Positions 1,240 to 59,200 of a stretch of DNA of 64,000 nt are shown here, piece by piece. Numbering within the stretch: position 1 is the first letter of the stretch; each line of letters opens with the position of its first letter. Location of the stretch: assembly GCA_013239625.1 (NCBI GenBank), contig MU053352.1, positions 815,079 to 879,078 on the forward strand, written 5' to 3'. A program made the position numbers and the translations under genes. The notes under the pieces are model-generated. The model was not told the DNA's origin and ran no database searches. It was given only the letters and a program-made list of their open reading frames with translations. This DNA comes from Lama guanicoe. Lineage: Eukaryota.

Positions 1240-36133
<34,894 letters not shown>

Positions 36134-37880
36134 GGGGCCCAGAGCCAGAGATCAGCTTCCCTACCCCTAAAGGCAGAGCTCCTGGGGGTGGCGCTTCATT
36201 CACGGGTTGGTGGACTTACCTTGGTTTGACTCACGTGGGACATTTGTGCTTTTGGAGGGAAAGAGACTCTGATTCTTTGAATCTTCCTCCCTAAGTTTAT
36301 AAATATTTATTTTTTAAAAGAAACAAGATGCTGTGCCTGCTGTGAGACCATACCTTTTTTGGTGACTCTTGGGCAAAGGACAGAGAGAACCAGGACACCA
36401 AGTCCGAGCCACATCTGTTGGTTCCTGGCTCCTCAAGATGTGGCAAATCCAGCGCCTCTTGGAAGTTGGAGAGGCTCCAGGGGCAGGGCTGGGGGAGGGA
36501 CAGGGCCCCCCAGAGTGGTGCTTCCCCAGGAACTCCAATCCAGGGGACTCCAAGGGGGCCACGGGTCAGGAGGAGGCTAAGCACTGAGCAGCTCTCCCAC
36601 TCATGGCTCCTGCCCCAGGCAGGGATGTGAGTGGTGGCCTGCGCTGTCGGGCACCTTGGCTGTGGCACAGTCCAAACAGCTTGGGGAAGAAAGATCCTCC
36701 TGTTCAGCTTCCCCATCCACCGCCCAAGTGCTCCCTGCTGGAGATTTCCACAGCTAACTGTGGACACTGAGGTTTCCTGCCTCAAAAACTTGAGTCTGGG
36801 TTGAGGAGTGGACTGATCCAACTCTGGTCCGACTGCTGACCTGGGTAGCACGCTGAATGTTTGAAGTCCAAAGGATTTCCTTTAGGAAAGGACCTTGTGT
36901 GTGAAGGATCCCCTGTGCTGACCTGGTGGAGCTCTGTCAGTGGGTGTGGCAGGGTCCTGAAGGAGCACGCCTGCCTCCATGCTGTGGGCCATCTGGAGGG
37001 CCTGCTGCTGCTTTTTCTTCCCTTGCTCCCTCTCTGCCCCACCATGCCTGGTCAGGGTCCCTGCTTTGGGCCAGAAAGGAGGAGGGGCCCACAGGTGTGG
37101 GAAGTGGGTCGCAGGGACTCCAGAGGCTGCTCTGTAGGAAGCACACCATGCCTTTCCTGCCGCCTGGTCACAGCCTCATACAGCTGTGGCCCTCAAACAA
37201 CTTCTCAGGGTCAAAGACAAAGGCAGGAGTCACTGAGTTTTCTCTTTAATGGCCATTGGAAAAATTCTGGTTTGCTTTCCTCCAACTCTCTTCTTCCCCC
37301 TCTTTATTTGGGGACTTAGGGTTTTCAAGAGCTATGGCCTTCGACCACTGGTCTGCGAGTCAGACCTCTCAGTGTTTCCGGCAGCTTCCCACATCTGGCC
37401 AGCAGTGGCCCTGTGAAGTCTGCAGAAGACTGGGAGCACTGCGAGGCCCCTAGATTAGATAGGCCACACTGGATTAGAAGTCTTCACCCACTTGTGCACG
37501 TAGCCAGAGCGCCTGTGACTTGTGGGTTTGGGGCTTCCCCAAACACATTCCTGGTAGAGGGCTGTTTGGGGGAAATACCATTCAGAGAGACCCTGCCCTC
37601 TTCCTCTGGAAGATTCTCTGAGTCTTGGGGTTTCTTGAACTGGTGGTTCCTCTCCTGTCCAGCTCGCCTTCTCCATCACAGGCAGCATATGGTCCATTTT
37701 TGTCCCCAAACATACTGTTTTAATCTAAATGGAAGTTGGTTCTGCATTTTTACCAGAGGGTAAACTCAAGTTTTTTATTTACACACCTGTAATCAAAATG
37801 CAATACTATAAACTTTCACTGGTGAGACTCCTGAACTCAGTCTGTTTTCTTCTTAGTAAAATCCAGCATCTTCCTCCTCT
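36134..37880 (+). other. MORC2: MORC2 3' UTR (3' end uncertain)
   Basis: Follows the stop codon. I saw no plus-strand AATAAA; variant signals are TATAAA 36298-36303, TATAAA 37807-37812 and AGTAAA 37855-37860. Confidence 0.55.
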
Positions 37881-40800
37881 TCATCCTTTCCTCCACTGTG
37901 GCTTTAAATTGTCTTCAAATTCTTCCTCATCTCCACCATCTTCAGTGTCTTGTATCTTCAGCCTCCTTACACCCACAGGAACTGAAATACTGCATTTCTT
38001 AAATGTTTTAGCTTCAACTTCTGGGTGTGCTACCTTGCTGTTTAAATCCAACCACAGCTGCGCTGAGTGCAGCCTGCTTCCCACGCGGAGCTCCTGCCAT
38101 TCTGGGTAGGAAGATGCCATGCAGGGGTCTCTTCCATTCCCCTGTCACAGATAACTGATCTCCTTGGAACTGTGGGAGGAAGGAGATGGTCTGGTTGGTC
38201 TGTGGCAAGAAGGTCCTGGGTTCAAGGCTGCGAGGTGGTGAATGAGTGCAGTGACCCTTGTTTTTAAGGATAAGAGGGATGAGGAATTTCTTTTGTGTTT
38301 TTTGTTTTGTTTTTTTAAGTGACACATGCACATGGTAAAAATTCAAACAGTACAAAAGGCTGGACCATGAAAAACAAGGCTCCCTCCCCCCCACCCCCTC
38401 CCGGGAGAGAGTATCCACCCTTAGCACACAAGTACACATCCACACAATTTCTGCCTGTTTCCCACTTAGTGTATCTTGGAACCTGTTTCAGAAGAGCTCA
38501 TATGGATCTACTTTATTCTTCTGAACAACCATATAGCCTTTCATTGTCTTGAATGTACTGTCATTTAACAGTCCCCTATTTATGAATATTTGGATTTTTA
38601 GTGTTTATGAAAAATGATGTGATGACTATCTGTGTGTGTGTGTACTTAATCATTAACTCAGATCCCTATGTATATAGGATAAATTCCAAAGAGAGAAATA
38701 GCTGTGTCAGACGGATGTATTAAAAATTCGAAGATACATTCCAGAAAAGACTTCCAATTTCAACTCCTATCAGTAGTGTGTTATTTCCCCCACACACTTG
38801 CCTGTATGCAGGCTCTTCCATCTTAACTGTTTACTAATCTGAAAGGTGAAAAGTGGACTTTTGAATTGGTTTGAACTACCCTGACATTGAGCATCTTCAT
38901 TGGCCAGCTGTGTTTGAGACAGGGCTGTACTTCTGAAACTTCGGTTAGGAACTTTTCTGTAAATCATGAAAAATAAGGGGCAAAATCCTCAAAAAAGTTC
39001 ACCTTATACCACTGCCTCAGCTCCCAAGTGTCCCATGGATTTAGCATTAAAAACCCCACTTTAGCATCAATACTGTCCTCATTACTAGGTCAGGACAAGG
39101 GTTTGATATTTTGGTTTACCAAAGGAAGGCATCGGTTAATAGCAGGCTGAGAGAAACGCCTCTGATTCCTCCTCTACATCTGTCTGGGTGGCATTGCTTT
39201 TTGGTTCCCCTTGTTGGGTCCAGTTCCCCTTGAAAGACATGAGTGTCTTTTAGACCCGTGGTTCCAGCAGCATTAGCGAAGAGTTCACAGCTCTAAAGAC
39301 CAGTAAGTGTTAAGACTGGTAAGTTCAGACTTCTTTACCTGCGCGTGCAGTGCCTCCACTGGCTACTTGTCTCCAGTGTAAGGCTGTTGTGCAGCTGGGC
39401 CAGGCTATTGGGGACCTGTTGACGGTTGCCAAGATGCCGAAAACATCCTCAGAATTCCACTGGAGGGTTCTGCCCTTTTGTTGAAGCCTCTGAGGCTTCC
39501 TTTGGAATAGCCATATTGCTCTTGGTTCCCTGAGCAGGTGGACAGCCAGTTTGGCCACAGGACACAGAGCTCTAAAGGAACATGCTTCCTCCAGTGCAAC
39601 ATTTGAGGCCTCAGACTGTCCTCAGCACTATTGGGGGCACCCTCTTGATAGTGCGCAAGACACAGACTGGACAGAGGAAGGACCTGGCAAGGCACATCCC
39701 ACTCAGCAGTGAGCCAAAATGTTGCCAAGCCTGTTTCTCAGTCTGGCGATTTACACCTCCTAACTAGGAACATGCCAGGCCCAACTAGGGCTCCTGGTGG
39801 ATCCTGCAGAAATTTCCCTCCTTCTTCCAGCTCACAAAGCCTCAGACAAATCACTGCCCATCCTGGGTCCCCTCTTTAAAATAAAGGAGCTGGATGACAG
39901 TAGAGATTTTATGGCCTACTAAGGCACAGGGCCAATTCTCCACCAGAACCTATAAGGACAGCCAGTAATTGAGCTGGTCTCAAGTTGCAATGAGGGCCCA
40001 AAGCCCTTGTTGCCCTGACCTGTTATTTTTGCTTCTAAGAGTCACTGGTCCCCACGGGCTACCAGTAGGCCTTCCACGGCTTACTCAGTGGCCTTCCTCG
40101 GAGCCGCCTAACCATCAGCCCATTCAGTATGCCCTGAGGCAAGCAGGGCAGGGCTTCCATCCAGCCTCCTTCGGGCTGCAGGAAGGTTGCCTGTGCTACT
40201 TCCTGAGGCACGGGCTTTCTCAGCAGCTTCCAGCCAAGGCTCGGAGGGTAGGGATCCCACGGCACAGAGGCAAACCTGGGCTAGTGAGACTAGAAGGCTC
40301 TGGCGGACACATCCCTCCTCCTTTCTTGTCCCTTCCTGACGCTGCTATGATGTTTCCATGGGATCCTCCAGGGCCACTCCTGCCAGAGCACCTGCAGGTT
40401 TTTGGGGAAGTGGTGGGCGCTCTAATCCAGCACTTTGAATTTACGTTCCTTCCTTCCCCGCTTTTCCTCTATTGAAGCTCTGGGCTCTCACTCCCCGCAC
40501 CACTTCCCCATCATTTAAGCCAGTCTGTTCCTAGTCAGGTCTGGAGCACTGCGATGCGAGAACCCCTGAGTGTCAGAAGGGAGAATTTTGACTTCCTCAC
40601 GCTAAATCATCAGCTACCATAATACAGCAGGAGCTCGAGGGCTGGCTGCAGATTCTCACCTGGCCTAAAGGACGCGGCCCGCAGCACTGGGTCATCTCTC
40701 AAAACGGGCTTTGCGGGTATCGGTGGGCCGGCGTCCTCCCAGACCGCCAACGGTTGCATGACGCGGAGAACGCCCGTCTCGCCCGCCCGCATCTTGAGCC

Positions 40801-40900
40801 TCGAGACAGGCGCGCAACGGCGCCTGCGCGGTGCAGTTGCTGCACGTGCTCCGCGCCCTGCGCATGCGCCTTGGGAGGCTCGCGAGCCTGCCAAGGGGCC
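37755..40900 (-). ncRNA. Putative spliced antisense transcript at the position of human MORC2-AS1 (predicted exons ~40900-40660, 40391-40020, 39571-39339, 38169-~37755)
   Basis: CpG-island promoter, ordered minus-strand donors and acceptors, minus-strand AATAAA 37774-37779; identity inferred from synteny only. Confidence 0.5.
37774..37779 (-). terminator. AATAAA polyadenylation signal on the - strand (antisense unit)
   Basis: Plus strand reads tttatt at 37774-37779. Confidence 0.5.
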
Positions 40901-41350
40901 CGAAGCGCGAGTGCCAGCGTCTGCGCCTCAGCGCGGGTGAGGAGAAGGGGAGGTGAGCGAGCCCGGGTGTGCGAGGCCCGCCCCGGGGTCCGACGTCGGG
41001 TCCCTGCGGCCCCACCGCGCGCGGCCAGGCTGGGGCCGGCGGCCGCGGGGTCTCACGTCCCGGGTCAGCGGGAGGCTTTGGGACAGGGCAGTGGGGAGGT
41101 TGGATTTTGCCCCTGTAGTCTGCGTGTCAAGCCCTGGCTCGGAGGAAACCTTTCACCGCGGCTGTTTTCCAACTTTCTTGGGTCACTACAGGAAAATTTC
41201 TTGTAGAGATGCCCCTTATTGGTGTGGTGCTTTTACATCTGCAAGACAGAGGACCTGGAGAGGAAGCCGCGGGTTTTACATTTTAAAATAGCCTCTCCAG
41301 GTACCTTCCCCTGACTGACCCGCCCGCTCGCCCTGACGGCTCGGGTTTAA
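40600..41350. promoter_or_regulatory. Intergenic CpG island / probable promoter
   Basis: Dense CpG; NRF1-type TGCGCATGCGC 40859-40869 and GCGCCTGCGC 40820-40829; E-box CACGTG 40843-40848. Confidence 0.85.
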
Positions 41351-42511
41351 CAGCTGCGCCTCGTTTTCCGCTGGTTTGTCTGTCCGTGGCTTGGTTTATG
41401 GTGTTGTTTGAAAGGTTTTGGGGTTTCCTATCGTGCTTGAGAAAATCCTTCCCCCTCTATCCAACCCCTGAGTATTCTCTTAAATTTTGTTGCACTGTTT
41501 TAAAGTTTTTTTTGTGTATCAATCTCCATTTCCTATGGAAATTATTTTAGTAGAAGTGGTAGGGCAGGAGTCAAACTTTGGTTTTGGTTTTTCCAGGTGG
41601 AACTTCACTTCTGCCAGCGCCATTTATTAAGTGACCCGCCTTGGTTATTACTTATATTACACTGTATGTGGTTTTGGATCTGTTGAGTTTGAGATGACCC
41701 TTAAATACAACAATGGAGACATACTGTTACCAGCTAGACGGACAGGTGATTCCGACGTGAGGGTTGAGCTCCTAGAATCTGGGGGCGTCATCAGCAGATA
41801 GATCAGTTTCCCTCACAGTTTTACTTTTTAGAATGTTTTTCCAGGCGACTGTTAGAATTTCTTCTTTCACATGAGATTTAAAATCACGTTATCCAATTCT
41901 CTCCTCTCCCTGCCTCCCCCCGCCAATTCCATTGGGGTTTAAATTTTAATTGCATTAAATGTAGATGTAAGTTGTGGGAGGGTTGACATTTTTATGATTT
42001 TAAATCTCCCTAGATGCTATGGTTTTTCCATTTGTTTGACTCCTTTTAGATCTTCCAATAAGATTTTATTATTTCTTCATACGGGTTCTAAAACTTTCTC
42101 ATTTTATTCCTAAATGTCTTGTATTTTTTGTCACTACTGTGGATGAGGGGTTTTTTTTTTTGTCTCTATTCCTGATAGTTAATATAGAGAAAAGCAAATT
42201 ATTTAATATTGCTTATTTTCTATCATACGAACTCCGGTAGTTTTTAAAAGAAACTTGTATTTTATAGATGAAATGTGAAAATTTGCCAGTTTGCCAGTTT
42301 AACTGCAGAACCTCTGAAACAGTGTTGAATAATTATCGAGGTCTTTCTGATGCGCATGGAAATTCATATGTTAGGGCTGAGCAGGATATTGGCTGTTGGT
42401 TTTGGTGAACGGCCTTTAAAGTGTGGAAAGACCTTCCTTCTGTTTTTGTTGTCTCTTTTTTTAAACTTGGGGCTTTTGGGATGGAGCTGTGGCTGACGAT
42501 CTTGTCTGAGT

Positions 42512-42530
42512 TGAGCGCCAGGGGGCACTA
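42512..42530 (+). promoter_or_regulatory. CTCF-like motif
   Basis: TGAGCGCCAGGGGGCACTA versus consensus TGGCCACCAGGGGGCGCTA. Confidence 0.55.
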
Positions 42531-45500
42531 GTTACACAGAATGAAACGTGGGTTGTGAGCCCCCTAACCCTGTCCCCCAACCCTGTCCCCCATTGTCAAA
42601 GGCCATTTCAGCATCTATTGCTAAAACCATATGGGTTTTTTCTCCTTTAAGCTGTTTTAATGATTACTTTTATTAGACACTGAGTAACTATGAAATACTG
42701 TATCAAATATTTATAGGACTATGCAGTGTACATCTTTCATTTGGTTTAAGAAAATGCATTATTATTAGTTTATAATCCATGTGTGCCCCTCCTGAGCCCT
42801 CTCCCCTCTCCTCCTTGCTCAGTGGTAACCACCATTCTGAATTTTGTGTTTATGATGTTTTCTTTGCTCTTTTTATACTTTAACCATCTTGGTTTATATT
42901 TCTAAATAATTGCTTGGCCTATTTTTGAACTTAAATGGACATGACATTTTATTTACTGTTCTGCAGTTTGCCTGTTAATATTATGTTCCAGAAATTCATC
43001 CATGTTGTTGGGTGTAGCTGTAATTTGTTCACCTTCCCTACTGTATAGTAGTGCTGCATACTCGAGAGTAATGGAAATGAATTGCACCTACAGTGGAACA
43101 TACCACAATTTTGAAAATCCATGTCGCTCTGATTGGCATTTGGGTTGTTTGAAAGCTTTTTGTTAATGCAGTACATCTGTGGACATTTGTGTTTATGTCT
43201 CTGGTTGCTTGCATAGTACTTGGAGTAGACTGAGTAGACTTGCTGTGTCATAGGTCATGCCCTCTTCAACTTTCCTAAGTAATACCAGATTGTTTTCAGA
43301 AGCAGTTGTATCAATTTACATGCTCATTGGCACTAAGCGCTTCATTTCTCTACTTCCTCACCCACACTTGATACTGCTAGACTTGATTTGTTTTTTGCCA
43401 GTCTGATGGGTGTGTAGTGTTAACTCATTGTGGTTTAATCTGCATTTCTCTGATTTCTGATGGGGTTAAGCATCTTTCAATAAAGTGTTTGCTCAAGCCT
43501 TTTGCCGATTTTCCTTCTTGTAACTTGTTTAAGAAGTCCTTCCCTATCCTGAGGTCATAAAGATACTTTTTATATTGTCTTCTAAAGTGTGTATAGTTTT
43601 GTCTTTCACATATAGATCTTTAATCCATCTGGAACTGACCTTTGCGTACGGTGTGAAGTAGAGCTCCAGTTCCTTCCTTCCTCCTTCCCTTCTTCCTGAT
43701 TGTCCTTACACCTCTTATTGAAAAGTCTTACCTTTCTCCATTAATCTACAATGTTACCCCTCTTGTATATGAAATGTTCATATATGTATGAATCTGTTTC
43801 TGGATTTTTATTCAGTTACATTTGTCTGTTGTCTCTCTACACACTAACTTTATTATAGTTTTATAGTAAGTTTTGCTACCTAGTAGAGCTGATCCTACCA
43901 CTTTTTCTGCTTCAAGAGCATCTTGAATATTTTTGGTCCTTTGCATTTCATATGAATTTTAGAATCATTTTATCAAGTTCCATGGGAAAACCTATATGGG
44001 GTTTCATTCGAATTGATTGTATGTTATCAGTTTGAGAAAAATTGGTATCTTTTTAAGTCTTCCAAATCATGAAAATGGTATAACTCTCCATTAATTTAGA
44101 TCTTTCTTTAGTGTCTTTCATGGCAATTTTATCTTTAGAGGTCTTGTGTGTCCTTTGTTACATGTATCCTAGGTATCTTATGATATTTGATGCTATCATA
44201 AATGGTATTTTTTAGAAGTTAATTTTCTGACATTTTGTTGCTAGTTTGTAAAAATGTAATTGATTTTTATATATTGACTATTCTAATTTATATCCCGATT
44301 CTTTTGGATTTTCTTTGATATATTGTTTGTGAGCAGTGATAATTTTGTCAGTTCTCATACCTCATGTATTTTTCTTGCCTTATTGCATTGGCTAGGATTG
44401 CCAATACAGTGTTGAAAGTAGAGTGTGAAAGTGGGTATCCTTTTTTGTTCCCTGTCTCACAGAGAAAGCTTTTTTCTGTAGGTATCATTCATCAGATTAA
44501 ATTTCTTTCTATTCCTATATTTAAGCATTTTTTTCTTGTAAATATCACAGATGCATGTTGAATTTCATCTCAAGTATTTTCTGCATCCATTGAGATGACC
44601 ATTCAGTGTTCTCCTTTAATTTGTTACTGTGGTGAATTGCATTGGTTAGTTTTTCTTAGGGTAAACCAACCGTGCACTTCTGGAATGATTTTTTTGTATT
44701 GCTAGATTTGTTAATGTTTTGTTTTGAATTGTACCAGCATGTGAGTGACACTAGTTTGTGATTTTCCTCTCTTACACTGTCCTTGTTAGGTTTTCTTAAC
44801 TAGATTATACTAGCCTCAAAAAACAAGGACAGTTTCTGTAAGATTGGTTATTCCTTGGTCAGCTGTATCTGGAGTTTGGTGTATATATGTGAGGGGAGGT
44901 TTTTTAACTGAATTTTTTTAAAAAAATGGTTATACTATTATTCAGGCTCTTCTAATTTTTGAGTCAGTTTTAAGTCATATTTTTCTAGAGTTTGTCTCAG
45001 TTTTTCAAAGGTATTGTCACACAGTTGTTATAATATCCCTAAAATACCTTTAGCATCTGTATCTATGTCCTCTTTTCATTGCAAGTATTGTTTTTTGGGT
45101 TCATCCATTTTCTCCTTCCTTCTGTTTTCCTTATCAGTAAAGTTTGTCAGTTTTATTTTTTCTAAGAATCAACCTCAACTACCTTGGTCCTTTCTATTAT
45201 GTTTGTTTTCTCATTCACTAATTTCTAATCATTATTTCCTTACTTTCCTTTCTTTGAGTTTATCCTAACATTCATTTCCCTACTCAAATTGGATGTTTAG
45301 CTCATTATTTTTTGGCCTTTTACTTTTAGAACATGAGCTTTCAAGGCTATAAATTTCCCTCTAAGTACAGCTTTATTTGTATCCTGTAAGTTTAGATATA
45401 TAATATTTTAAGTTTTAATTGTATTTTCTGGTTTTTGTTTTCTTTTTTGATCCATAAGTTTTTTTAAAAGTGTATTTCTTAATGTTCAAACATGGTTATT

Positions 45501-45708
45501 TTTTCTAATTTTCTTTTTGTTACTGATTTTTAACTATCTTTGTTGTCATCTGAGAACGTGGCCTATATATACCAGTCCTTTGAAATTTGCTGAGGCTTTA
45601 CGACTGGCCTAAGTGTGTGGCTAATATTCATAAATTTTCTGTGCATTTCAAAAATATGTATTTTGCTGTTATGTATAATTCCCTGTATGTGCCTATTACA
45701 ACAAGTTT

Positions 45709-45836
45709 ACTTTTGATTCTTTTTTTGGGGGGGTAGGTAATTAGGTTTATTTATCTTAAATGGAGGTACTGGGGGTTGAACCCAGGACCTCATGCATGGT
45801 AAGTGTGCACTCTACCACTAAGCTATACCCTCTCCT
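45709..45836 (-). mobile_element. tRNA-derived SINE, camelid vic-1-like, long form
   Basis: Reverse A/B boxes; 17-bp target-site duplication cctattacaacaagttt (45692-45708) / cctattacaccaagttt (45837-45853). Confidence 0.9.
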
Positions 45837-48765
45837 CCTATTACACCAAGTTTGTGTTGTTTGAACCCTTGCTGATAGTGTTTGAGCTCTCATTACTGGG
45901 AGAGATATGTTAAAATCTTCCATTACGATTGTGTATTTATCTATTTCTCCTTGTGGTTGTGTCCATTTTACTTTATTTTCAGATGTTATTAGATGCATAT
46001 GAGTTTTAGAACTTCATGAATTTTACTTTTCATCATTATAAAGTGTTTTTTTAAATCTCTTGAAGTTGACATTAGTAATATTTTTTGCCTCATAATCTGT
46101 CTTGTCTGTATAGTTATGTTTTAGGTGTTTTCTTATAAATAGCATATAACTGGATTTTTAAAAAAATATTTTTCATTCTTACTCAAAGCATTTAACTTAA
46201 ACTTTGTGTAATTATTGATGCATTGGTTATTGACTTATTTCCATCTTCCTACTTTGTAATTTTTATTCCACCTTATCTGCATTCCTTTTTCCTTTCCTGC
46301 TTTCTTTTAGATTGACTGAAAATTTCTCCCCGCATACAGTGTTTTTCCTCTGTTCTGGAAGTTTAGTATTCTCATTCCTCCATATATTTTACATAATCCT
46401 TAACTCATCAAAGTCTAACTCCACAAACCACTTAGTATTGTTTCAATAAATTTTTGTTAGTCTTCATTTTCCTTTCATTCCTGAACGATATTTTCATTGG
46501 GAATACTAACAGTTTCTCCTCTACTTTGGAGATATTTTATTGTCTTCTAACTTTCTCTGGAGGTCAGAAGACAGTGAATTCCCAGTCTAATCAATGCTCT
46601 CTCAAGGTACCCCTCTGCAAATTTGGTTCCTTGTAAGATTTTGTGGTTTTTAAAGGTCTTGCATTTTCACTATATTGTATTTAGCTGTAGATATCTTTTT
46701 ATTTACCTTTACTAGGATTTGTTGCGATTGAGTCTGTATACTGGTATTTCTTGTCAAAAAGCTAATTTTTTAGTCATTAACTCTTCAAAGATTGCTTGTG
46801 CTCCATTTTCACTAGATACACTTGGCATCTTCTTACTTCATCCTCATCTCTTCTCTTTTATATTTTTCACCTCTGTGTGTCTGTGTTGCTTTCTGGATAC
46901 TTAACACAGATCTCACTTCCATGCCTCTAATACTCTCCTCGTTGTATAATCTGATATTCATTATTTTTAGTGATTTTTTTTCAATTTCTGCAAGTTCTTT
47001 AGTATTTTTTTAATGCTTTTTACTCATTTGCAAGCCACTCTTCTGTTTCTAGATATATATTAAATGTACTTATTTTACACTGTGTCTGCCAATTTCTCTG
47101 TATCAAGGGGTTTTATGTTATGCATGATTCTGATGTAATTTCTGTTGGCCATTGTTTATGGGCCAATTTGTTGTGTTTCCTTGTATCTCTGGAGATACTA
47201 TACTGTGAGCTGCTGGTTTTCCTGGCAGCTTCACATCTGAGGTTCTGTAAGGCCTGGAGTGAAGGGGAGAGCCTCCAGAGAGGATCTGTTTGTTTCTCTC
47301 ATGTGACTGGGGACAGACGTTGCCAATTTGGGACCAAGCTATATTCTCTACTAGAGCTTTTATTGGACCACCCTGATAATATGTATTTGGGCTGTGAAAT
47401 CAAATGAGGGTCTGCTTCTGATTACAAATTCTTAGTTTTCTTTTTTTCTGCTCTGCTTAGGACTAACCTTTAAGACAAGCAATTTTCCTTGTATTCGATT
47501 ATTGATTCACCATTGTATTGAAGGTATAGCCCTTGGGGGCCCAGCTTTAGGGAGGACATGTACTGATGCCCTACATCAGGCAGGCCATTTGAGGCTATGA
47601 AAACTTAGTTAGGCTCAGTGGGCTCAGTAAATGGCTATGAGAAGCAGACTTCGGGACTTGTATCTCCCCTGGTTTCCACATCCACTTAATTTTTGGCCTA
47701 AGTATTCCTTATATTCATTCCAGCTCATGGATGCATTTAAAGTATTTTAAAATTTTTATCCAGCATGTCTAGTTTTCCACAAAGGATGATAATCCAGGCA
47801 CCTAGTCTACCATTGCCAGAAAAAGAAACCCCTCTTGAACTGGCTGGTAAAATGAATGATTTACAACTAAAAGCTTCCCAACTTTGACCCATTCTGGCAT
47901 TTCTCTGTAAACCGAACTTGGGCATGGGTTTACCAGTGTGAGGTATCAGCTTTTTGTATATGGCTGGATTCTATTTGCTGTTGTCATATTTGGATATATG
48001 GAAGTTCTGTTCTTATATTCCATTCCCTCCCTTGGCAGATCCCCTCTCCACTGCCTCATGGGTCAGGGCCATCCTGGGGGTGCCCCCCTGCCCTTCTCTC
48101 CAGTGAGAGCTGCCCCCCAGCACCTCTGCCAGGACTCACCGGTGTCTGCCTGCCTCCCCACAGATGGGAAAGCAAGCACCTGGAAAGGAAGGAGTTTTGC
48201 GGAGCCAACCTTGGATCCCACAGCACTGGGGTGTCAGGATCGATGGTTAGAGCCTGGCTCTGATGCCCCTATGGTGCCTGCCCCGCTTCATCCTGTCTCC
48301 TGGAAGTGCTGGCACTGGGAGGAGGACCTACTGGGCCAGACCAGCCACCCTTGGCTGGGTCCTAGGAGCTACTGACCCAAGTTGCTTGGCAACCTGGGGC
48401 AACAGAAGTGGCCCAGGTCACAGTTGTTGGGCAACCCTAGAACTCACCAGGGCCAGTGTTCCCTGTGGAGGGTGGTGAGGGCCTTGGCTTGGCCCCAGGC
48501 CAAACTGTGACCCTCTGCTAGGTCCTGACTCAGCCTTTGGCAGCCTTCCTGGCCCAGACCCTGTCCCACCATATCTTCCACCCCCACCCCTCCCCATCCA
48601 GACCAACCTCCCACTGCTGGCTTCTGGCACTGAGCAGAATAAAGCCCCACACTCCTCCCCCATGCCACCTGTGGGCTGTCATCTGCTCCCCTGTGTCAGC
48701 CCTGCTCCACCCAGTTACAGACAGGCTCAGGGACAGGGCCGTGGAAAACTCCAAATCCAAGGTTT

Positions 48766-50124: not shown

Positions 50125-50267
50125 TCAGAAGATGTTGGGGCACATGTGCCAGTCCTGCTTCTCCTTAGCCTCCCAGTAGCCGCCCTTGTACATGCAGGCC
50201 GTCTCCCCGGTCAGCGGGTCCAGCCTCTTCTCGAACCACAGCGGCATGTACACTTCGGCCTCCTTCT
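50125..50267 (-). CDS. OSBP2: OSBP2 last coding exon (EKEAEVY...WHMCPNIF*)
   Basis: Tandem acceptor ccag|cag|; TGA at 50127-50125. Confidence 0.93.
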
Positions 50268-53200
50268 CTGCTGGAGGAACGCGGGCTGGTGGGCGGAGGG
50301 CCTGCCTCCTCCCAGCGCCCCAGAAATCCACACCCTGTCCCCTCTCCCGCTGGCACGCCTCCCTGCCCCCAGGCAGGGCACCCCTTCCCAGTCCCTAGGA
50401 GACCCTTGTCCCCACTCTCACTGGCCCCACTCCTCGCTCCTGGGGTCCCCCCATCCCCGCCTCACCTTCCTCCGCGCCACAGCCCCGCGCGCAGGCCTCC
50501 AGCCGCCGGCGCCGGTTTAGGCGCTGCTTCTCCTCCAGCCGCTGCTTCTCCGTGTTGGCCTCGTCCCAGTGGCCCTTCTCCATCAGCCGCTGGTCCGGAC
50601 GCAGGCGGCTGTCAGTGGGCGCCACGCCCTCCTCGTGCTCGTTGAGGGTCAGGGCCAGCTCCGAGAAGTAGTACATGTTCTCTGCGTTCTCCCTGCGGTG
50701 GCCCCGCTGCGTGAGGTCCAGCCGCCCTCCGTCCCTCCCCATCCCGTGTGTCCCTCCACCCCTGCAGACCGGCTGGGGCGCCCACGTCGCCCCTTCCTCC
50801 CCGCGCCTAACAGTCTCGCTCCACCGACCTGCATCTGTTTTGTTACTCCTGTCTGTTTTGTCATACTCTTCTGGGAATTTGCCACTTTCGTCCAATTTTT
50901 CATATTTATCAGCCAGAAGTGTCTCATAATGTCATTATTGTTGCTTTAATGTGTGACAGCAGCGTCCTTTTCGCGTCTGTGATGTTGGTCTTAATGCGCC
51001 TTCTCTACTCACTCATAGCAGAGAAAGTTTGTCCGTTTCCTTCATTGGCTGAAGATGAAGCTTTGCTGATCCTATTTTAGATTTTTCTGCACTATTGATT
51101 TTGCTTGTATAGTCTTCCTTTTACTTTGTTGGACTTTCTTTTGCTGCTCCTTTTCTAACTTCTTGGGGTATATGCTTAGCTCCATATTTCTCTGTGTTTC
51201 TTTTCTAATACGTGCATTTCAAGGCTACAGATTTCACTCCAACTACTGGATCCCACTGTTTTTGATGTGTATTATTTTCATTATCATGCAGTTATATTTT
51301 CCAATTTTCATTATACCTTCTTTGTCCTATGGATTGGTTAGAGGTATATTTCTTAAGTTTAAAAATACATGAAGATTTTTCTCATCTTTATTTCCAGCAT
51401 AATTGCCTTGAAGGCACGGTATACTTGGTGTAATTTCAGTTCTTTGAAACTTGCTTTATGGCCCAGTACATGGTCAGTTTCTGAAAATGTTCCACATGTA
51501 ATCAAAGAGCCTGCGTATTCTACAGTTGTTGAGTGTCCTGAAGGTTCTATTGTTCAAACTTGTCCTTTTTTTTTTCTCTGTTCTCCATTAAAAGAAGTAT
51601 ATTAATGGGGAAGGTATATAGCTCAAGTGGTAGAGTGCATGCTCATCATGCATGAGGTCCTAGGTTCAATCCCCAGTACCTCCTCTAAAAAAATAAGTAA
51701 GTAAACCTAATTACTTCTCCCCCACAAAAAGAGGTATACTAAAATCTCCCACTTTGGTTGTAAACTAGTCCATTTTTCCTTATATTTCCATCAACTTTGC
51801 TGTATATATTTTGAGTAATTAGATACAGGGTATATTCAAACTGAAAACATCTTCCTGGTGAACTGAACCTTTATCATTGTGTCCCTCTTTGGTCTTTTTG
51901 TTTTAAAGTCTGTGTTGTGATATCACTACAGCTGCAGGCAGCTTTTGCTTGGTTAATTTTTCTATGTATACATTTCTTCTTCCATCCTTTTATTCCAATC
52001 TTTATTTCCTTATTTAGATGTGTTTCTTGTAAACCACATATAGTTGGATTTAAAAAACTTTGAAAGCTTATAATGGGAACACTTAATGTAATTCCTGATA
52101 TGTTGGATTTAAATCTACTAGCTTATTTTTTTTTCTTTTCATATTGTCGCTTTTTTGGACCTCAGGTGCACAGTTTTGGATTAGTCATACTACTTGGTAC
52201 ATTGGTCTTGGCATGGCCTGCTTATATTAATGCAACCTTGGCACCTGAACAAAAGATAGAATCCTGACAAAACCTACATCTAACCATATGGAAAACTCAT
52301 CATCCATCCCCTACTCAGGTTCATCAGTCCTTTGCTTTCTGTTTAATACAGTTTTGTCGCATCTTTAAGTAGTCTTAAGTGTGTGTGTATTAATATACAT
52401 ATATTTTATGTTTTTAACTGTATAAAAAGAAAATCATGATCTATGTAACTTTGTAGGAGTTGCTTTTTAAAACAATTTTATATTGCTAAAATTGACCTAT
52501 ATTTCATCTTGCTGTGGTTCATTTGTTTTCAACTACAGTAAATATTGTCTTGTGTGAATATATTGCAATTATTCATCCAATAAATTTGGGTTGTTTCCAA
52601 GTTTTTGCTTTGGGGCAATCTGACACATGTTTCCTGTTGTGCATTTTTAGGAACTTCTCATGAGCCCACACCTCGCCACAGAGTATGTGCTGTTCTTTAG
52701 GAGCAGAGGCCACACTGCTTTCCAGTGATGTATAAGAGATACTGTGGATCTACGTCTTCGTCAAACTTGACAGTACCAGACTTCATTTTTTCGAATCAAA
52801 TGAAGGTAAAACTGGATCTCATTGTGGTTTTGATTTGTATTTCCCCGAGTACTGATGATGCTGATCATTGCCATCTGATGACTGGCCATATGCGTTTCTT
52901 CTTCTGTGAAATTCTTGTTCATGACTCTTGCACATTTCCCACTGGATTGTTTTGCTTTATTCATTAGAAGTCTTTATTCTTTTTTACTTATTATTTTTAG
53001 TTGGGGTAGAATACTTCTTATGTATTTCTTAAGTATATTTTTATTGAAGTATAGTCAGTTTACAATGTTGTGTCAATTTCTGGTGTACAGCGTAATACTT
53101 CAGTCACATAGGAACATACATATATTCGTTTTCATATTCTTTTTCACCATAAGTTACTGCAAGATATTGAATATAGTTCCGTGTGCTATATAGTATAAAC

Positions 53201-56200
53201 TTGTTGTTTATCTGTTTTATATATATTAGTTAGTATCTGCAAATCTAAAACTCCCAGTTTATCCCTTCCCTCCCCTTTCCAACCTGGTAACCCTAAGTTT
53301 GTTTTCTATGTTTGTGAGTCTGTTTCTGTTTTGTAAATAAGTTCATTTCTTCCTTTCTTCCTTTCTTCCTTTCTAAATTCCACATACAAGTGATATCATA
53401 TTATATTTTTCTCTTTCTGGCTTACTTCACCTAGAATGACACTCTCCAGGTCCATCCATGTTGCTGCAAATGGCAGTATTTTATTATTTTTTATGGTTGA
53501 GTAGTATTCCATTGTATAAATATATCACAGCTTCTTTATCCAGTCATGTTGATGGATATGTAGGTTGTTTCTATGTCTTGGTTGTTGTAAATAGTGCTGC
53601 TATGAACAATGGGGTGCATGTGTCTTTTTGAATTAAGGTTCAAATTAAGGTCCTGGATATATGCCCAGGAGTAGGATTGCTGGATCATATGGTAAGTCTA
53701 TTTTTAGTTTTTTAAGGAATCTTCATACTGTTTTTCATATTGGCTGCATTAAACTACATTCCCACAGTGTAGGAGGGTTCCATTTTCTCCACACCCTCTC
53801 CAGCATTTATTGTTCGTGAACTTTTGAATGATGGCCATTCTGACTGGTGTGAGGTGATACCTCATACTTTTGATTTGCATTTCTCTGATAATTAGCAATA
53901 TTGAGCATTTTTTCATGTGCCTGTTGGCCATTTGTATGTCTTCACTGGAGAAATGCTTGTTTACTTCTGCCCATTTTTGGATTGGGTTGTTTGTTTTTTC
54001 TTATTAAGTTGTATAAGCTGTCTATATATTCTGGAGATTATGTCCTTGCCAGTCTCATCTTTTGCAAGTATTTTCTCCCATTCTGAAGGTTGTCTTTTTC
54101 TTTTGCTTATGGTTTCCTTTGCTGTGCAAAAGCTTATAAGCTTAATTAGGTCCCTTTTGTTTATTTTTGCTTTTATTTCTATTGCTTGGGTAGAGTGCCC
54201 TAGGAAAGCATTGCTGAGATTTATGTCAGATAATGTTTTTGCCTGTGTTTTCTTCTAAGAGGTTTATAGTGTCTTGTCTTATGTTTAAGTCTTTAAGCCA
54301 TTTTGAGTTTATTTTTGTGTATGGTGTAGGGAGTACATGATTTACATCTTTTTTTTTTGATTTACATCTTTTTATGTATTCTTAATATACTAATCCTTTG
54401 TCAGGTGTAAATATCATGATTACCCTCTCTAAATTTATATATTGTCTTTTTGCTTTCTCTAAATTGTCTTTTAATAAGCAAAATTTCTTTTAATGAACGA
54501 AAGTATTATAATTGAACTGCATCAGGTTTTTTTCCATTATTTAAGAGATACTTGCTTAAGTTCTAAAAGATACTGTGTTTTCTACTTAGAGTTTAACTCA
54601 CTGTCTAAGAGCTAGTCAAATATAGTACTTATTGTAAGACCTTTATTTGGAGTTGATTTTTGTAATAATGTAAGAGAGAGATTCACGAAGTCTTTTTCTG
54701 TGTGGATAACCATTTCCCCCAGATCCTTTTAGTGATGGTGCCATTTATCCATGTGATCTGATATGCTACCTTTGTTATATACCAAAGATACATGCATATC
54801 CAGGGGCTGTTTTTGGGCTCATTGTTCTGTTTCACTGTAGCTTCAAAGTAAGTCCTCTTTTTTTCTGTTCTTCTTTAGAAATATCCTGGCCCTTTATTCT
54901 TCAATATAAATGTAAAAAATCATAATATCAGGTTCCATGAAAATCACTATTGGGATTTTATTTGATTTACTGACTCTTTAGATCATGACATTTTTATAAT
55001 ACTCATTCTACCCATGAACATGGTATCTTTCTCCATTCATTTAGCTCTTCCTTGATATCTCAGCAAAGTGTTATATGCAAGACCTCTACAGAGAAAATTT
55101 ATTATAAGGTCCTTTATATTTGCTGATATGATAACTGGTGTCTTCTCTGAAACTGTGTTTTCTCATTGTTTTCTTTTAGTGTGTATAAACGCAACAGACT
55201 TTTACATATTAATCTTACGTTGAGGCACCCAAAATGCATTTTCTGAATCTGTTCAGATCTGTTAAAGTGATGAGTTAATTTATGAATTTTCTAGTATAAG
55301 ATCATCTTTATATACCCAGGATATACTCAACATGATTGAAGAACGTTGTTTTTCTTATACTGTTGGATTTTCTGATGTCTTGTTTTGGAATTTTGCTCAC
55401 ATATTCATGAGTGAAAGAGCGTATGTGGAACTTTTATTTTCCTACTACTCTGTTAGCCTGGTTTGGTGTCAGGTATCTTATACTGGTTTCACAGGATAAG
55501 AGAGGAAAGTATTTCTTCTTTTTCTGTGGTCTGAAAGATTTTATATAAAATTGGGATAATATATCTTAAAAATTTGGTAGAATTCACCTATAAAATTATC
55601 TGGGCTTTTGTTTTCCCTGTGGGAATTTTTAAACTAATGCTTCAGTTTCTTTATTATAGGACTATTCATGCTTTTTTTCCTTCAAGACTCATTTCTTTTA
55701 AGTTATAAAATTTGAATGATATCTTTATACTTTAAATGTCATATGAAACTTTTATTAATATTTATGTCTGTATTTTCTCTGGATCAGTCTTGCTAGTAGT
55801 TTTCTTTTTTTTTCCCCTCAAAGAATCAACTTCTGGCTTTTTTAACTTCTTACTTTACTTCTTTCTATTTTACTAATCCCTGCTTTTATTTTTAAGGTGT
55901 ATTTTCTTCATTCTTTCAGTTTCTGTGTTGAACTTTCTCTCATTTCTTAGCATGGAAACTCAAAAAAGAAAAAGCCTTGTAAGTTTTTATACCTATTTAA
56001 GGCAGTACATTTCCTTTGAAGCATTGCCTTTAGTACATCCAGCCAGTTTTGATATCTTTTTTTCTTCTCATTCAGTTCTAGGCATTTTAAAATTTCCATT
56101 CTAATTTATTATTTTACCCATGAGTTATTTAGCAAATGAAAAAAATTTCCAAATATGTAGGGACTTTTTGACATCTTGTTCATAACTTCTAACTTAATTA

Positions 56201-59200
56201 TCTTATAGATTTCACTTGTTGAGCCTTTCTTTAGAGTTTAGTACATAATTTTTGTGTAAATTCCATGTGTACTTGAGTAAAAAGCATGTTCTCTGATTGT
56301 TGCAACCATAAGTATATGTATATCCTGTGTTGTTTTTTTCCTGTTTGACTCAACAAGAGACGGGGTGAACTGAAATCTCTCAGTCTCCCACTGTGGTGAT
56401 AGATTTATCCATTTCTCCCTTTCCTATCAATACGTGCTGTGTATTTTTGAGGCTACCTGCATAATGTCTAACAACATTATGCCTTCTCAAAGAACTCAGC
56501 CTTTTATCACATAGCGTCTCTTTAACCCTTAATAATGCCTTTGTCTTAGTCTATTTTTACCTGATATTAATAGAGCCGTTGTAGCTTTTTGGGTTAGTAT
56601 TTCCACGATATGTCTGTCTTTTGCGTTCAGCCTCTGCCCATCTTTCTGTTTTGGATCTTTCTTAGAAGGTCCATGCATCTGGGTTTTTAAAAATCCATTC
56701 AGTATTTTGCTTTTTAACTACTGAGTTTCATCTATTTATATTTATTACGCTTAGACCTATTTCTACTGTGTTAATTTACTGTTTTTATTTGTCCTTTTTC
56801 TTTTTAATATTTTCTTACTAATTTAGAAATCTTCTGTCTCTTCCTTCACATCCCTGGTGCCTTCTCTGTCTCCCCAAACCCCATCATGTTAACATTACCT
56901 ACACTTCTAATTCTGGATTATTGTGGGAATATTTTCTCTTTTTCTTTGGTCTTATTAATTGTTTAAAAAAAACATACACCCAACTTTTCATTTTATGTAC
57001 CTACCACAGCACCTTCTGGATTTTTTCCCCCGTTTTAAAGTACTATGTCCAGTACCCTTTTCATTGTGGGTTTTTGTGTGGCAAACTTGAGGCTGTTTGC
57101 CTGAGAATTTTTTTTTTAAATCATGGCGTCATATTTGAATGACAGCTTGGCTGGACAGAAAATTTTACTCTGATTTCATTTTTTTCATTACTTTAAAAAT
57201 ATTACTCGTGTTGGCTGTTAAAAAATGTGACATCAACCTGATTCTTCATTCTCTACTGAAACCTTTTCTCTCTTAAGGCTATTTGAATTTTCTTCTTGGT
57301 ATCCTTCATTTTCACTGTAGTGTGGTCTGGGCAGAAGTTTTCTTTCTCTTTCGTCTCTGGAATATAACAGGCCTTTTCAACCCAAGGTCTTTCATCTCTT
57401 TATTCTGGGAAATTTATCTCCATCGTTTTTCTTTAACTACTTTTCTCTCTCCTTTCCATTTTTTTCTTTCCTTTAGTTCTGGGATTCCAACCAAACATAT
57501 TAATTTAGTGGTTGCTCTCAGAATTACAACTTGTGTACTTCAAAGAGTCAAAAATCAGTGCGCATCCTGACCCACCTCTCGGGTAACACAAGGGCCTTGG
57601 AAAAGTTTCCTTCCTGTTATCGCTCTTCTGACTTCCATGATTGTGCGGTTGTACTTAATGTTTAGATTTTAACCCTCACAAGACACTATTGCTCTTGTTA
57701 ATTCACTGTCCACGTGATTTTTGTTCTTCATTTATTCACACACCTTGGTTCTTCCATCTGGGAGCTGTATCCTTTAGTGCAGGTCTGCTGGGGGCAAAAT
57801 GAGGTTTTATTTGTCTGAAAACGTCTGTTTCAGCTTTGCTCTATAAGACTGTTCTTGCTGGGTGTATAATACCAGGCTGGCAAGTGAGTCTTTCTGTACC
57901 TGGAAGATTCCACTTGACTGTCTTCAGGCTCCCGTTACTGCTGTTCCTTGGAAAGTACAGTCTTTTTAAAATCTGACTGCTTAATATTTTATGATTTAGT
58001 TTCAACAGTTTCACTGTATAGATTTAGGTGTGGGAAATTCTCTAGTGTTTTCAGATATGCTCTTTCTTTTGGACTCTGACTGGAAGCAGGCTGGACCCTG
58101 CTCTCAAACTCGATGTGCACCCAACGTCCAGATGCTGCACCTCTCAGGCCCTGGGGCTGCCCCAGGACTCACTCAGGGTCACCAGGGAGCTAGCCTCTCA
58201 GTTTAGCTTCTTGTCTTTTCCATGTTTTGTCTCTTTATCTGAAGATTTTGATGATTTCTTCTGACCTATATTCAGTCGGTAGATTCTCTCTGTTAAACCT
58301 TCTCATGGAGTTCTCAACTTCAGTTCTTCTGTTTTCCCTTTGTAGAATTTTCATTCTCTTTGGAATCAGCTGTGTCACTTTTATAGTTTTGTGTTTCCTG
58401 CACTCTTGGACTATGGGGGCTTGTCCTATCAGCCTATCTTAAGTCTCTGTGTAGGACTTGTGTGTCACACTTATTTACAGTTGGCTGTCGCCCTCATGCT
58501 GGGATATCAGCACACAGTACTGTCCTCCCCTCCCATGTGGATCCCTGCCTGCTGCTCCCTCCCTGTCTGGCTGGATGAGGTTACCTGCCTGCCCTGTCCA
58601 CTGCCCTCGCCTCCTTGTCCCCCCTACCCCACAGTCCCACTCACGGCAGTGGGTACTTCTTCCACAGCAGCTTGGCTGGTAGTGTCTGGTACACCGTCTT
58701 CTGCTTCCCATCCGAGCTGGGGCTACTGGGGCTGCTTTGCACGATCTTGGCGCACTCCATCTGTTCATCCCACGAGCCTGACAGCACATAGTGGGCCTTG
58801 CCCTGGCTGTCACTCACGACTCCTGTCACCTGTGGACATTGGCAGGGCCAGCATAGGCACACGCCCCCTTCTGGGCTCCCTGACTGAGGCTCCAGGAGGT
58901 GGCCTTGCTTACCTTTCGGGCCACCTCTTTGGAGAAGTAGCTGTAGGGCAGGAACTTCAGCTGGCACCGGTCCTTGGTCTTGTGGTTCACAATCTCGATG
59001 TCCCCTGTCTGGTGAGTGAAGGGGTGGTCAGCGGCCGATCCCCAGGCCACATGCCCCTTCCCCAAGGGCACCCCCTGACCTGGTCGATCCAGAGCTTGCC
59101 CACGATGATGTTATGCACAGTCGAGGTGCTTTTCCTCCACACGTAGTGATTCCCACTGGCCTGGAATTCTAAGTGGATGGCACCTGTAGGCCAGATGTAG

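Follow-up and report, generated by a model that had tools for sequence, protein, structure and literature searches.

In the 64,000-nucleotide stretch of Lama guanicoe DNA analysed here (the window), the interval between MORC2 and OSBP2 is probably this mammal's orthologue of MORC2-AS1, that is, a gene for a non-coding RNA that would start in a CpG island on the - strand and converge on MORC2. We regard the orthology as very probable because four human MORC2-AS1 primers map colinearly to the - strand and because the gene order and the island agree with it. A sequence-only reading of the same DNA had proposed a hidden, under-described antisense gene of four exons at this place. Its suggestion of a MORC2-AS1 counterpart convergent on MORC2 stands at the level of the gene, on the strength of gene order, island and primers; the exon structure that it drew is not supported. 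Nor is the gene hidden or of an under-described kind, since it is instead the counterpart of an annotated human lncRNA: MORC2-AS1 is already known in human, and it is a gene of an ordinary kind.

The order at this locus is TUG1, MORC2, the CpG island and OSBP2. In a domain search the MORC2 domains, Chromo_MORC2_6th (E 9e-24) among them, fell at 18.6-30.9 kb on the + strand, and the Oxysterol_BP exons of OSBP2 lie on the - strand from 63.2 down to 50.1 kb, the last Oxysterol_BP open reading frame occupying 50128-50394. TUG1 is divergent from MORC2 on its upstream side: Rfam located TUG1 conserved regions 1-4 (230, 179, 154 and 113 bits) on the - strand in the DNA 1.8-4.6 kb before the window begins, and a second CpG island at 1-750 marks the TUG1 start. 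The candidate gene is thus bounded by the 3' ends of the two coding genes and has the opposite strand to MORC2. Human MORC2-AS1 likewise lies between these two 3' ends and opposite MORC2, so that place and relative strand are alike in the two species. The predicted exons had been described as non-repetitive, and this held: a DNA search of the candidate against its own genome returned the self match and three short (~50 nt) low-complexity matches only, and BLAST of 37000-41600 gave no matches either to the rest of the window or to 200 kb sampled from the same genome, whereas control stretches of the window did match repeats. The assignment of the neighbouring 42-47.5 kb to LINE-1 was not supported, as just 2.2% of 41601-48000 matches the 200-kb genome sample.

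The island itself is real by GC content and CpG observed/expected ratio (o/e) and lies where it had been claimed. All 500-bp windows across 40501-41500 satisfy GC>0.55 and o/e>0.6, and the o/e of the core (Table 1) compares with 0.28 over the window as a whole and 0.21 over 37700-40599. By consensus sequence it carries an NRF1-type palindrome (GCGCATGCGC, 40860-40869), an E-box (40843-40848) and two - strand GGGCGG motifs (40788, 40983); the core has no TATA motif. The island is the presumed promoter and is probably bidirectional. Strong + strand donors at 40936 and 40952 accompany the - strand donor at 40660, so the direction of transcription is not fixed by sequence. The first poly(A) signal is met at 38517 on the - side and at 41954 on the + side, and this asymmetry of donors and poly(A) signals leans towards - strand transcription without being decisive. 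A CpG-dense promoter region is also what the human literature suggests: 12 array CpGs within a region of 784 bp are attributed to MORC2-AS1 (PMC6733812), one CpG is placed 'at promoter' and another in the gene body (bioRxiv 10.1101/440206), and a probe is annotated N_Shore, TSS1500 (PMC11989983).

Assignment of the candidate to the - strand follows from the orientation of the human primers, of which F1 and R1 are listed in the accessible part of PMC7791915 and F2 and R2 in that of PMC9906100. The human sequence compared amounts to these four 20-nt primers, ~80 nt in total. Their order, F1, F2, R2, R1, is colinear in the window, the forward primers matching the - strand and the reverse primers the + strand, as expected of a - strand transcript. 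R1 and F2 are individually significant and the other two match with small gaps. For R1 there is one match in the window against 0.01 expected, and none of 300 shuffles was as good. F2 matches 16/20 at 38209-38190 on the - strand, again with 0/300 shuffles as good; it has no match at <=3 mismatches, and in the gapped search this site is not the best of the window, 16/60 shuffles scoring as well. For R2, no gapped match anywhere in the window is better than that at 38119-38133 (+ strand; 2/60 shuffles as good). F1 found no match in mismatch-only searches; its best gapped match of the whole window falls within candidate exon 1 (40761-40743, - strand), 83-101 nt before the donor at 40660, and is not significant alone (5/60 shuffled primers score as high in the window). 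The three downstream sites may have been conserved as MORC2 3' UTR rather than through an antisense RNA. Among these human sequences there is no counterpart for the proposed exons 2 and 3.

Table 1. Features of the MORC2-OSBP2 interval (window coordinates)
Feature	Coordinates	Strand	Evidence and remarks
MORC2 last coding exon	36065..36133	+	Stop codon 36131-36133
Antisense poly(A) signals	37245..37308	-	AATAAA 37308, ATTAAA 37250; possible true antisense 3' end
R1 primer target	37690..37709	Site on -, primer matches +	18/20 identical, 2 mismatches
Proposed exon 4, candidate	37774..38169	-	Acceptor scores 5.53; human PMC9906100 primers in or near it
Candidate MORC2 3' ends	38719..39885	+	First signals past the MORC2 stop: ATTAAA 38719, ATTAAA 39046, AATAAA 39880
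Proposed exon 3, candidate	39339..39571	-	Acceptor weak; better acceptor at 39666
Proposed exon 2, candidate	40020..40391	-	Acceptor weak; better acceptor at 40133
Exon 1, candidate	40660..40900	-	Ends at D1; strength of D1, human F1 primer alignment
CpG-island core, presumed promoter	40700..41099		55 CpG in 400 bp, GC 0.745, o/e 1.0

The splice motifs on which the four-exon structure had been built are present exactly where they were claimed on the - strand: the donors CAG|GTGAGA (40660, D1), CAG|GTCAGG (40020, D2), TGA|GTAAGC (40085, an alternative to D2) and CAG|GTAAAG (39339, D3), the acceptors with first exon bases 40391 (A2), 39571 (A3) and 38169 (A4), and AATAAA at 37779-37774. Their strength is another matter. 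Sites were scored by a simple weight matrix, which serves for ranking alone. D1 scores 6.89, equalled about once per 11.8 kb of background, and is the strongest - strand donor within 41600-37700; A4 is equalled about once per ~1.1 kb. These two are the sole strong sites of the chain. D2 (3.47) and D3 (3.69) have equals once per 957 and 1120 nt, and a donor as good as that at 40085 occurs once per 155 nt. A2 (-2.09) and A3 (1.19) are weak, being equalled once per 53 and 147 nt, and stronger acceptors stand close by at 40133, 39666, 38838 and 38199; a further candidate acceptor is at 37786. Of 336 stretches of 3.2 kb drawn at random from the same genome, 248 contain a chain of three introns and a poly(A) signal whose score equals or exceeds that of the proposed one, so that the chain is no better than chance as evidence of gene structure. 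The best chain in the candidate stretch scores 30.6 against 18.7 for the proposed one, and 16% of random stretches attain 30.6. Mammalian contigs carrying the orthologous interval were sought in a metagenome collection, where neither a codon-degenerate pattern built on the MORC2 tail nor the final 34 nt of exon 1 found a match.

The last exon probably lacks the boundaries proposed for it. Its region is probably exonic, and both of its proposed ends are doubtful: human primer F2 runs across A4, and R1 lies 65-85 nt past the AATAAA at 37779, where the transcript had been made to end. Since F2 spans A4 and the 38199 acceptor, the human exon would begin further upstream. By homology to the human R1 site the antisense RNA would extend to at least 37690, and because this site lies downstream of both AATAAA 37779 and ATTAAA 37724 the 3' end is probably at 37308 or 37250.

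The exact model (junctions 40660>40391, 40020>39571 and 39339>38169, ending at AATAAA 37779) is one that we consider quite unlikely, its exons 2 and 3 being no more than possible. In its favour, no other - strand donor from the island down to 38169 is better than the three that it uses, and it predicts 756 of the 1771 31-mers of 39100-40900 (0.427) to be exonic, close to the top shares in RNA (0.44, 0.44 and 0.40). Against it, beyond the chance-level chain, the weak acceptors and the misplaced ends of the last exon, stands the amplicon of PMC7791915, which would be ~1.19 kb under this model although the extension step in that paper was 30 s. The RNA shares themselves come from eight RNA runs of three studies, which hold 0.21-0.44 of the 179 sampled words of 39100-40900 and none above; five runs of unrecorded kind hold 0.87-1.00 of the same words. 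Runs X9-X14 (0.10-0.19, the upper value equal to the exon 2 share, 342/1771) have small word shares and were left out of the evidence. The observed ceiling suits exons 1-3 (0.43) and a + strand transcript (0.44) equally. The latter would be a long MORC2 3' UTR or read-through to AATAAA 39880, with no stable spliced - strand RNA from the island and with exons 2 and 3 as chance motifs. In favour of this reading, the + strand has no AATAAA or ATTAAA within 34000-38718, after which such signals follow at the three positions of Table 1, and an RNA ending near 39900 would cover about the observed share of words. It would, however, give MORC2 a 3' UTR of ~3.8 kb, and silence is not to be expected of an island with o/e 1.0 that sits where human MORC2-AS1 has its promoter and that is followed by a strong donor for the first exon; the primer sites of PMC7791915 and PMC9906100 demonstrate antisense transcription of the homologous region in human. 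This reading appears unlikely to us, if somewhat less so than the exact model.

Two further explanations are less probable still. An orphan CpG island acting as enhancer or insulator, where no gene is defined and transcription in both directions yields only short, unstable RNAs, would fit the strong donors on both strands (40660 on -, 40936 and 40952 on +) and the absence of functional evidence for MORC2-AS1 from the accessible parts of the literature found. It is very improbable, as up to 44% of a 1.8-kb stretch starting inside the - side of the island is present in RNA-derived contigs of three studies, and as human MORC2-AS1 has been quantified by qPCR and RNA-seq in several papers (qPCR primers: PMC7791915, PMC9906100). 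An unannotated small protein-coding gene has next to no probability in our estimate. The spliced model of 1261 nt contains a 59-aa ATG open reading frame that begins in exon 1 and one of 79 aa, its longest, but sizes of this order are what chance gives in 1.26 kb. Pfam matched no family among 13 - strand stop-to-stop frames (55-157 aa) within 37881-41456, and an 87-aa frame in exon 4 suggested as a transposase tail found no support there; for the 168-aa open frame on the + strand (39969-40475), none of 149 candidate relatives reached E<=0.001. With no long frame, no Pfam family and no relatives, the candidate RNA is predicted to be non-coding.

We favour a MORC2-AS1 orthologue. The sequence shows the island, the strength of D1, the gene order and the colinear similarity to four human primer sites; that the locus is transcribed in this species, on which strand, whether D1 is used and where the RNA ends are inferred. 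RNA polymerase II would start the antisense RNA in the TATA-less island core (40700-41099), the first exon would end at D1, and the RNA would run on the - strand, convergent with MORC2, to at least 37690 and probably to the signal at 37308 or 37250. Because it would extend to 37690 or beyond, its 3' part would lie opposite the MORC2 3' UTR, and MORC2 3' ends at 38719, 39046 or 39880 are candidates for overlap with the antisense gene; variant signals at 37807 and 37855 are alternative candidates for the MORC2 end. In this it would resemble tail-to-tail natural antisense transcripts, converging on a protein-coding gene and probably overlapping the MORC2 3' UTR. It resembles TUG1 as a non-coding neighbour of MORC2 that would start at a CpG island; it differs in having no Rfam match (36000-42000, E<=1), whereas TUG1 has four Rfam conserved regions and runs divergently from the MORC2 promoter. 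Its function, if any, would most likely be a cis effect on the choice of MORC2 3' end or the level of MORC2 mRNA, brought about by convergent transcription or by overlap of the sense and antisense RNAs. We hold such an effect to be rather doubtful and rate it likelier that an active CpG island yields the RNA as a by-product of low abundance. Far less probable still is that MORC2-AS1, rather than being peculiar to primates, has been retained from an ancestor shared by human and this mammal, with island, D1 and 3' overlap preserved because convergent transcription tunes which MORC2 poly(A) site is used or how much of its mRNA is made.

In the accessible parts of the literature found, MORC2-AS1 is absent from titles and abstracts and occurs only in gene lists, methylation tables, expression signatures and primer tables. 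The outcome here is a corrected picture of the MORC2-OSBP2 locus, together with a caution that a chain of splice-like motifs 3' of a CpG island does not establish an exon structure. MORC2 is an effector of HUSH-mediated LINE-1 silencing and a neuropathy gene, and a conserved antisense regulator would be worth knowing for these reasons. If conserved regulation were true, this retroelement-silencing ATPase would have, in addition to TUG1 at its 5' end, a dedicated cis-acting RNA that regulates it from the 3' end.

The Pfam matches in the window place MORC2 on the + strand and OSBP2 on the − strand, the Oxysterol_BP pieces of the latter running from 63.2 kb to 50128–50394. An Rfam search of the 20 kb of the same contig upstream of the window located TUG1 conserved regions 1–4 on the − strand (113–230 bits), at 5400–8162 of the contig piece L026 and 1.8–4.6 kb before the window start. 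TUG1 is divergent from MORC2, at the CpG island 1–750, so the non-coding neighbour proposed for the 5′ end of MORC2 is indeed present. The gene order that follows from these placements is TUG1, MORC2, island, OSBP2, which is also the order at human 22q12.2. Rfam also returned tRNA-like matches at L026:6269–6340 (48.7 bits, within the TUG1 span) and, in a second sequence, at L025:525–596; either could be a genuine tRNA gene or a SINE of tRNA origin.

Coordinates of the features discussed, with how often an equally good splice site occurs in the genomic background
Feature	Position	Strand	Remark
HATPase_c_3 (MORC2)	near 18.6 kb	+	Pfam
Morc6_S5 (MORC2)	22.6–26.4 kb	+	Pfam
zf-CW (MORC2)	near 27 kb	+	Pfam
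Chromo_MORC2_6th (MORC2)	30.75–30.93 kb	+	Pfam, E 9e-24
MORC2 stop codon, end of last coding exon	36131–36133	+	
AATAAA, proposed end	37779–37774	−	
Acceptor A4, first exon base	38169	−	one per ~1.1 kb
Donor D3, exon end	39339	−	one per ~1 kb
Acceptor A3, first exon base	39571	−	one per 147 nt
Donor D2, exon end	40020	−	one per ~1 kb
Alternative donor, exon end	40085	−	one per 155 nt
Acceptor A2, first exon base	40391	−	one per 53 nt
Donor D1 (CAG/GTGAGA), exon end	40660	−	rare, one per ~11.8 kb
CACGTG	40843–40848		in island core
GCGCATGCGC palindrome	40860–40869		in island core
AATAAA, OSBP2 side	48771	−	

Three CpG islands were found in the window with 500-bp windows (1–750, 40501–41500 and 50251–51000). 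The second is the island claimed for the candidate: its 400-bp core (40700–41099) holds 55 CpG at a GC content of 0.745 and an observed/expected ratio of 1.0, compared with 0.28 for the whole window and 0.21 for the candidate body (37700–40599). The core contains no TATA, and its − strand carries GGGCGG boxes; the palindrome, CACGTG and GGGCGG correspond to NRF1, E-box and Sp1 consensus sites, respectively. Two strong + strand donors also lie in the core (40936 and 40952, scores 5.05 and 5.94), and the first + strand poly(A) signal past them is at 41954, which together suggest a short divergent transcript, predicted to head from the same island towards the 3′ end of OSBP2. The third island (GC 0.64, observed/expected 0.71) overlies a coding ORF of OSBP2, the large penultimate one with Oxysterol_BP (50398–50931, −).

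Human MORC2-AS1 is not named in the titles or abstracts of the surveyed papers that mention it. In the available text of these papers, it is assigned 12 CpGs that form a differentially methylated region of 784 bp (PMC6733812), one CpG is placed 'at promoter' and a second within the gene body (bioRxiv 10.1101/440206), a probe is annotated N_Shore, TSS1500 (PMC11989983), and it figures in expression signatures and in a ceRNA network built in silico (PMC9200351, PMC8777518); qPCR primers are given in PMC7791915 Table I (here F1/R1) and PMC9906100 Table 1 (F2/R2). These four 20-mers were the human MORC2-AS1 sequence compared. R1 has a single match in the window, at 37690–37709 (+) with two mismatches, where 0.01 matches are expected; within 41000–37500, 0/300 shuffles attain 18/20. 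F2 matches 16/20 at 38209–38190 (−), with none of 300 shuffles as good in that interval; it has no match at three or fewer mismatches, and in gapped alignment to the whole window this site is not the top one (16/60 shuffles as good). For R2 and F1, the best gapped alignments of the whole window fall at 38119–38133 (+; 15 matches, one gap; 2/60 shuffles as good) and at 40761–40743 (−; 17 matches, two small gaps), the latter inside predicted exon 1, 83–101 nt upstream of D1; F1 has no match without gaps and is weak taken alone (5/60). The two forward primers match the − strand and the two reverse primers the + strand, and the sites follow one another as F1, F2, R2, R1. Taken together, these placements are good evidence for homology between the interval and the part of the human genome transcribed as MORC2-AS1, with the − strand as the sense strand.

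The splice motifs and AATAAA of the sequence-only reading all stand exactly where it put them on the − strand. Their arrangement was judged by scoring all GT and AG sites with a simple weight matrix, whose frequencies serve for ranking only, against 400,000 strand-bases of genome sample. The three proposed donors are the best three on the − strand between the island and 38169, the expected number also being three, and acceptors better than A2 and A3 occur at 40133, 39666, 38838 and 38199. When chains of three introns and a poly(A) signal were built by dynamic programming in 336 random 3.2-kb stretches, 248 equalled or exceeded the proposed chain (18.68); the best chain in the candidate stretch scores 30.6, which 16% of random stretches also reach. 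The exon chain as such is thus no more than chance and does not serve as evidence for structure, the features worthy of note being the island, D1 and perhaps A4. It is unlikely that the exact four-exon structure is correct in all its parts. One CAG/GT at 37786/37787 (−), directly upstream of AATAAA 37779, reads either as an acceptor whose exon begins at 37786 (4.44) or as a donor whose exon ends at 37787 (5.59).

The claim that the exons are non-repetitive held. Searching the genome itself with 37755–40900 gave self and three ~50-nt low-complexity matches; because this search passes over very common words, BLAST was added with 37000–41600, which matched neither the rest of the window nor 200 kb from 20 other places in the same genome. 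Control stretches gave 20 (51577–51744), 19 (45702–45839) and 12 copies (53004–54359) in the same sample, and the candidate is single-copy DNA. Two neighbouring stretches, 41601–48000 and 51000–58000, are both AT-rich with an A-rich − strand; interspersed repeats of that sample cover just 2.2% of the former, by the SINE-like piece 45702–45839, and 23.7% of the latter, including 53004–54359. The proposed spliced model (1261 nt) has a longest ATG ORF of 79 aa. None of the 13 − strand ORFs scanned between 37881 and 41456 (55–157 aa) matched Pfam, none of 149 candidates in a large protein collection reached E ≤ 0.001 for a 168-aa open frame through 'exon 2', and Rfam returned nothing in 36000–42000 at E ≤ 1.

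The primer sites bear on the gene boundaries. F2 extends past the 38199 acceptor by ten bases on its upstream side, stops short of A4 altogether, and matches in both halves; in human this sequence is therefore exonic, and the exon begins further upstream than the 38169 proposed for the last exon. R1 lies 65–85 nt past AATAAA 37779, just beyond ATTAAA 37724, and the human RNA must therefore continue past these signals. The 3′ end probably lies several hundred bases beyond the one proposed, the next − strand signals being AATAAA 37308 and ATTAAA 37250. The PMC7791915 primer sites are 3072 nt apart in the L. guanicoe genome, and the human product must therefore be spliced. If the human structure were that of the window, the amplicon would measure ~199 nt with exon 1 joined from D1 to acceptor 37786, ~582 nt with exon 1 joined to A4 and ~1.19 kb with the four proposed exons; the available text of PMC7791915 describes a 30 s extension. 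The most likely extent of the gene is from about 40.9 kb down to 37.25 kb, which would overlap the MORC2 3′ UTR.

RNA runs were queried with 179 sampled words from 39100–40900, picked to stay clear of the likely MORC2 3′ UTR. Eight runs recorded as RNA (three studies) held 0.44, 0.44, 0.40, 0.35, 0.35, 0.34, 0.25 and 0.21 of the words, and a ninth 0.19. This ceiling of 0.44, against 0.87–1.00 in five runs of unrecorded kind, establishes that a bounded part of 39100–40900 occurs in RNA-derived contigs. Exons 1–3 of the proposed gene predict 756/1771 31-mers (0.427); a + strand MORC2 transcript that ended near 39900, as a long 3′ UTR or by read-through to the canonical AATAAA at 39880, would account for about 0.44 of these words, and the word share therefore cannot discriminate between them. 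Neither AATAAA nor ATTAAA occurs on the + strand in 34000–38718, which leaves the first 2.6 kb downstream of the MORC2 stop free of both; the MORC2 3′ UTR may be 2.6–3.8 kb long, or the variant signals TATAAA 37807 or AGTAAA 37855 may be used. After this gap, three + strand signals follow in 1.2 kb (38719, 39046 and 39880).

What the sequence-only reading observed stands in its motifs, island and single-copy status, but not in its chain; likewise, its interpretation as a MORC2-AS1 counterpart convergent on MORC2 is favoured by gene order and primer sites, but the exact four-exon structure is not. On balance, the candidate is quite probably the MORC2-AS1 orthologue, convergent on MORC2. No function of MORC2-AS1 is shown in this analysis or in the available text of the literature surveyed. 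In human the gene has been annotated before, and it is of an ordinary kind; if it has any function, cis effects through its 3′ overlap with MORC2 would be the most plausible.
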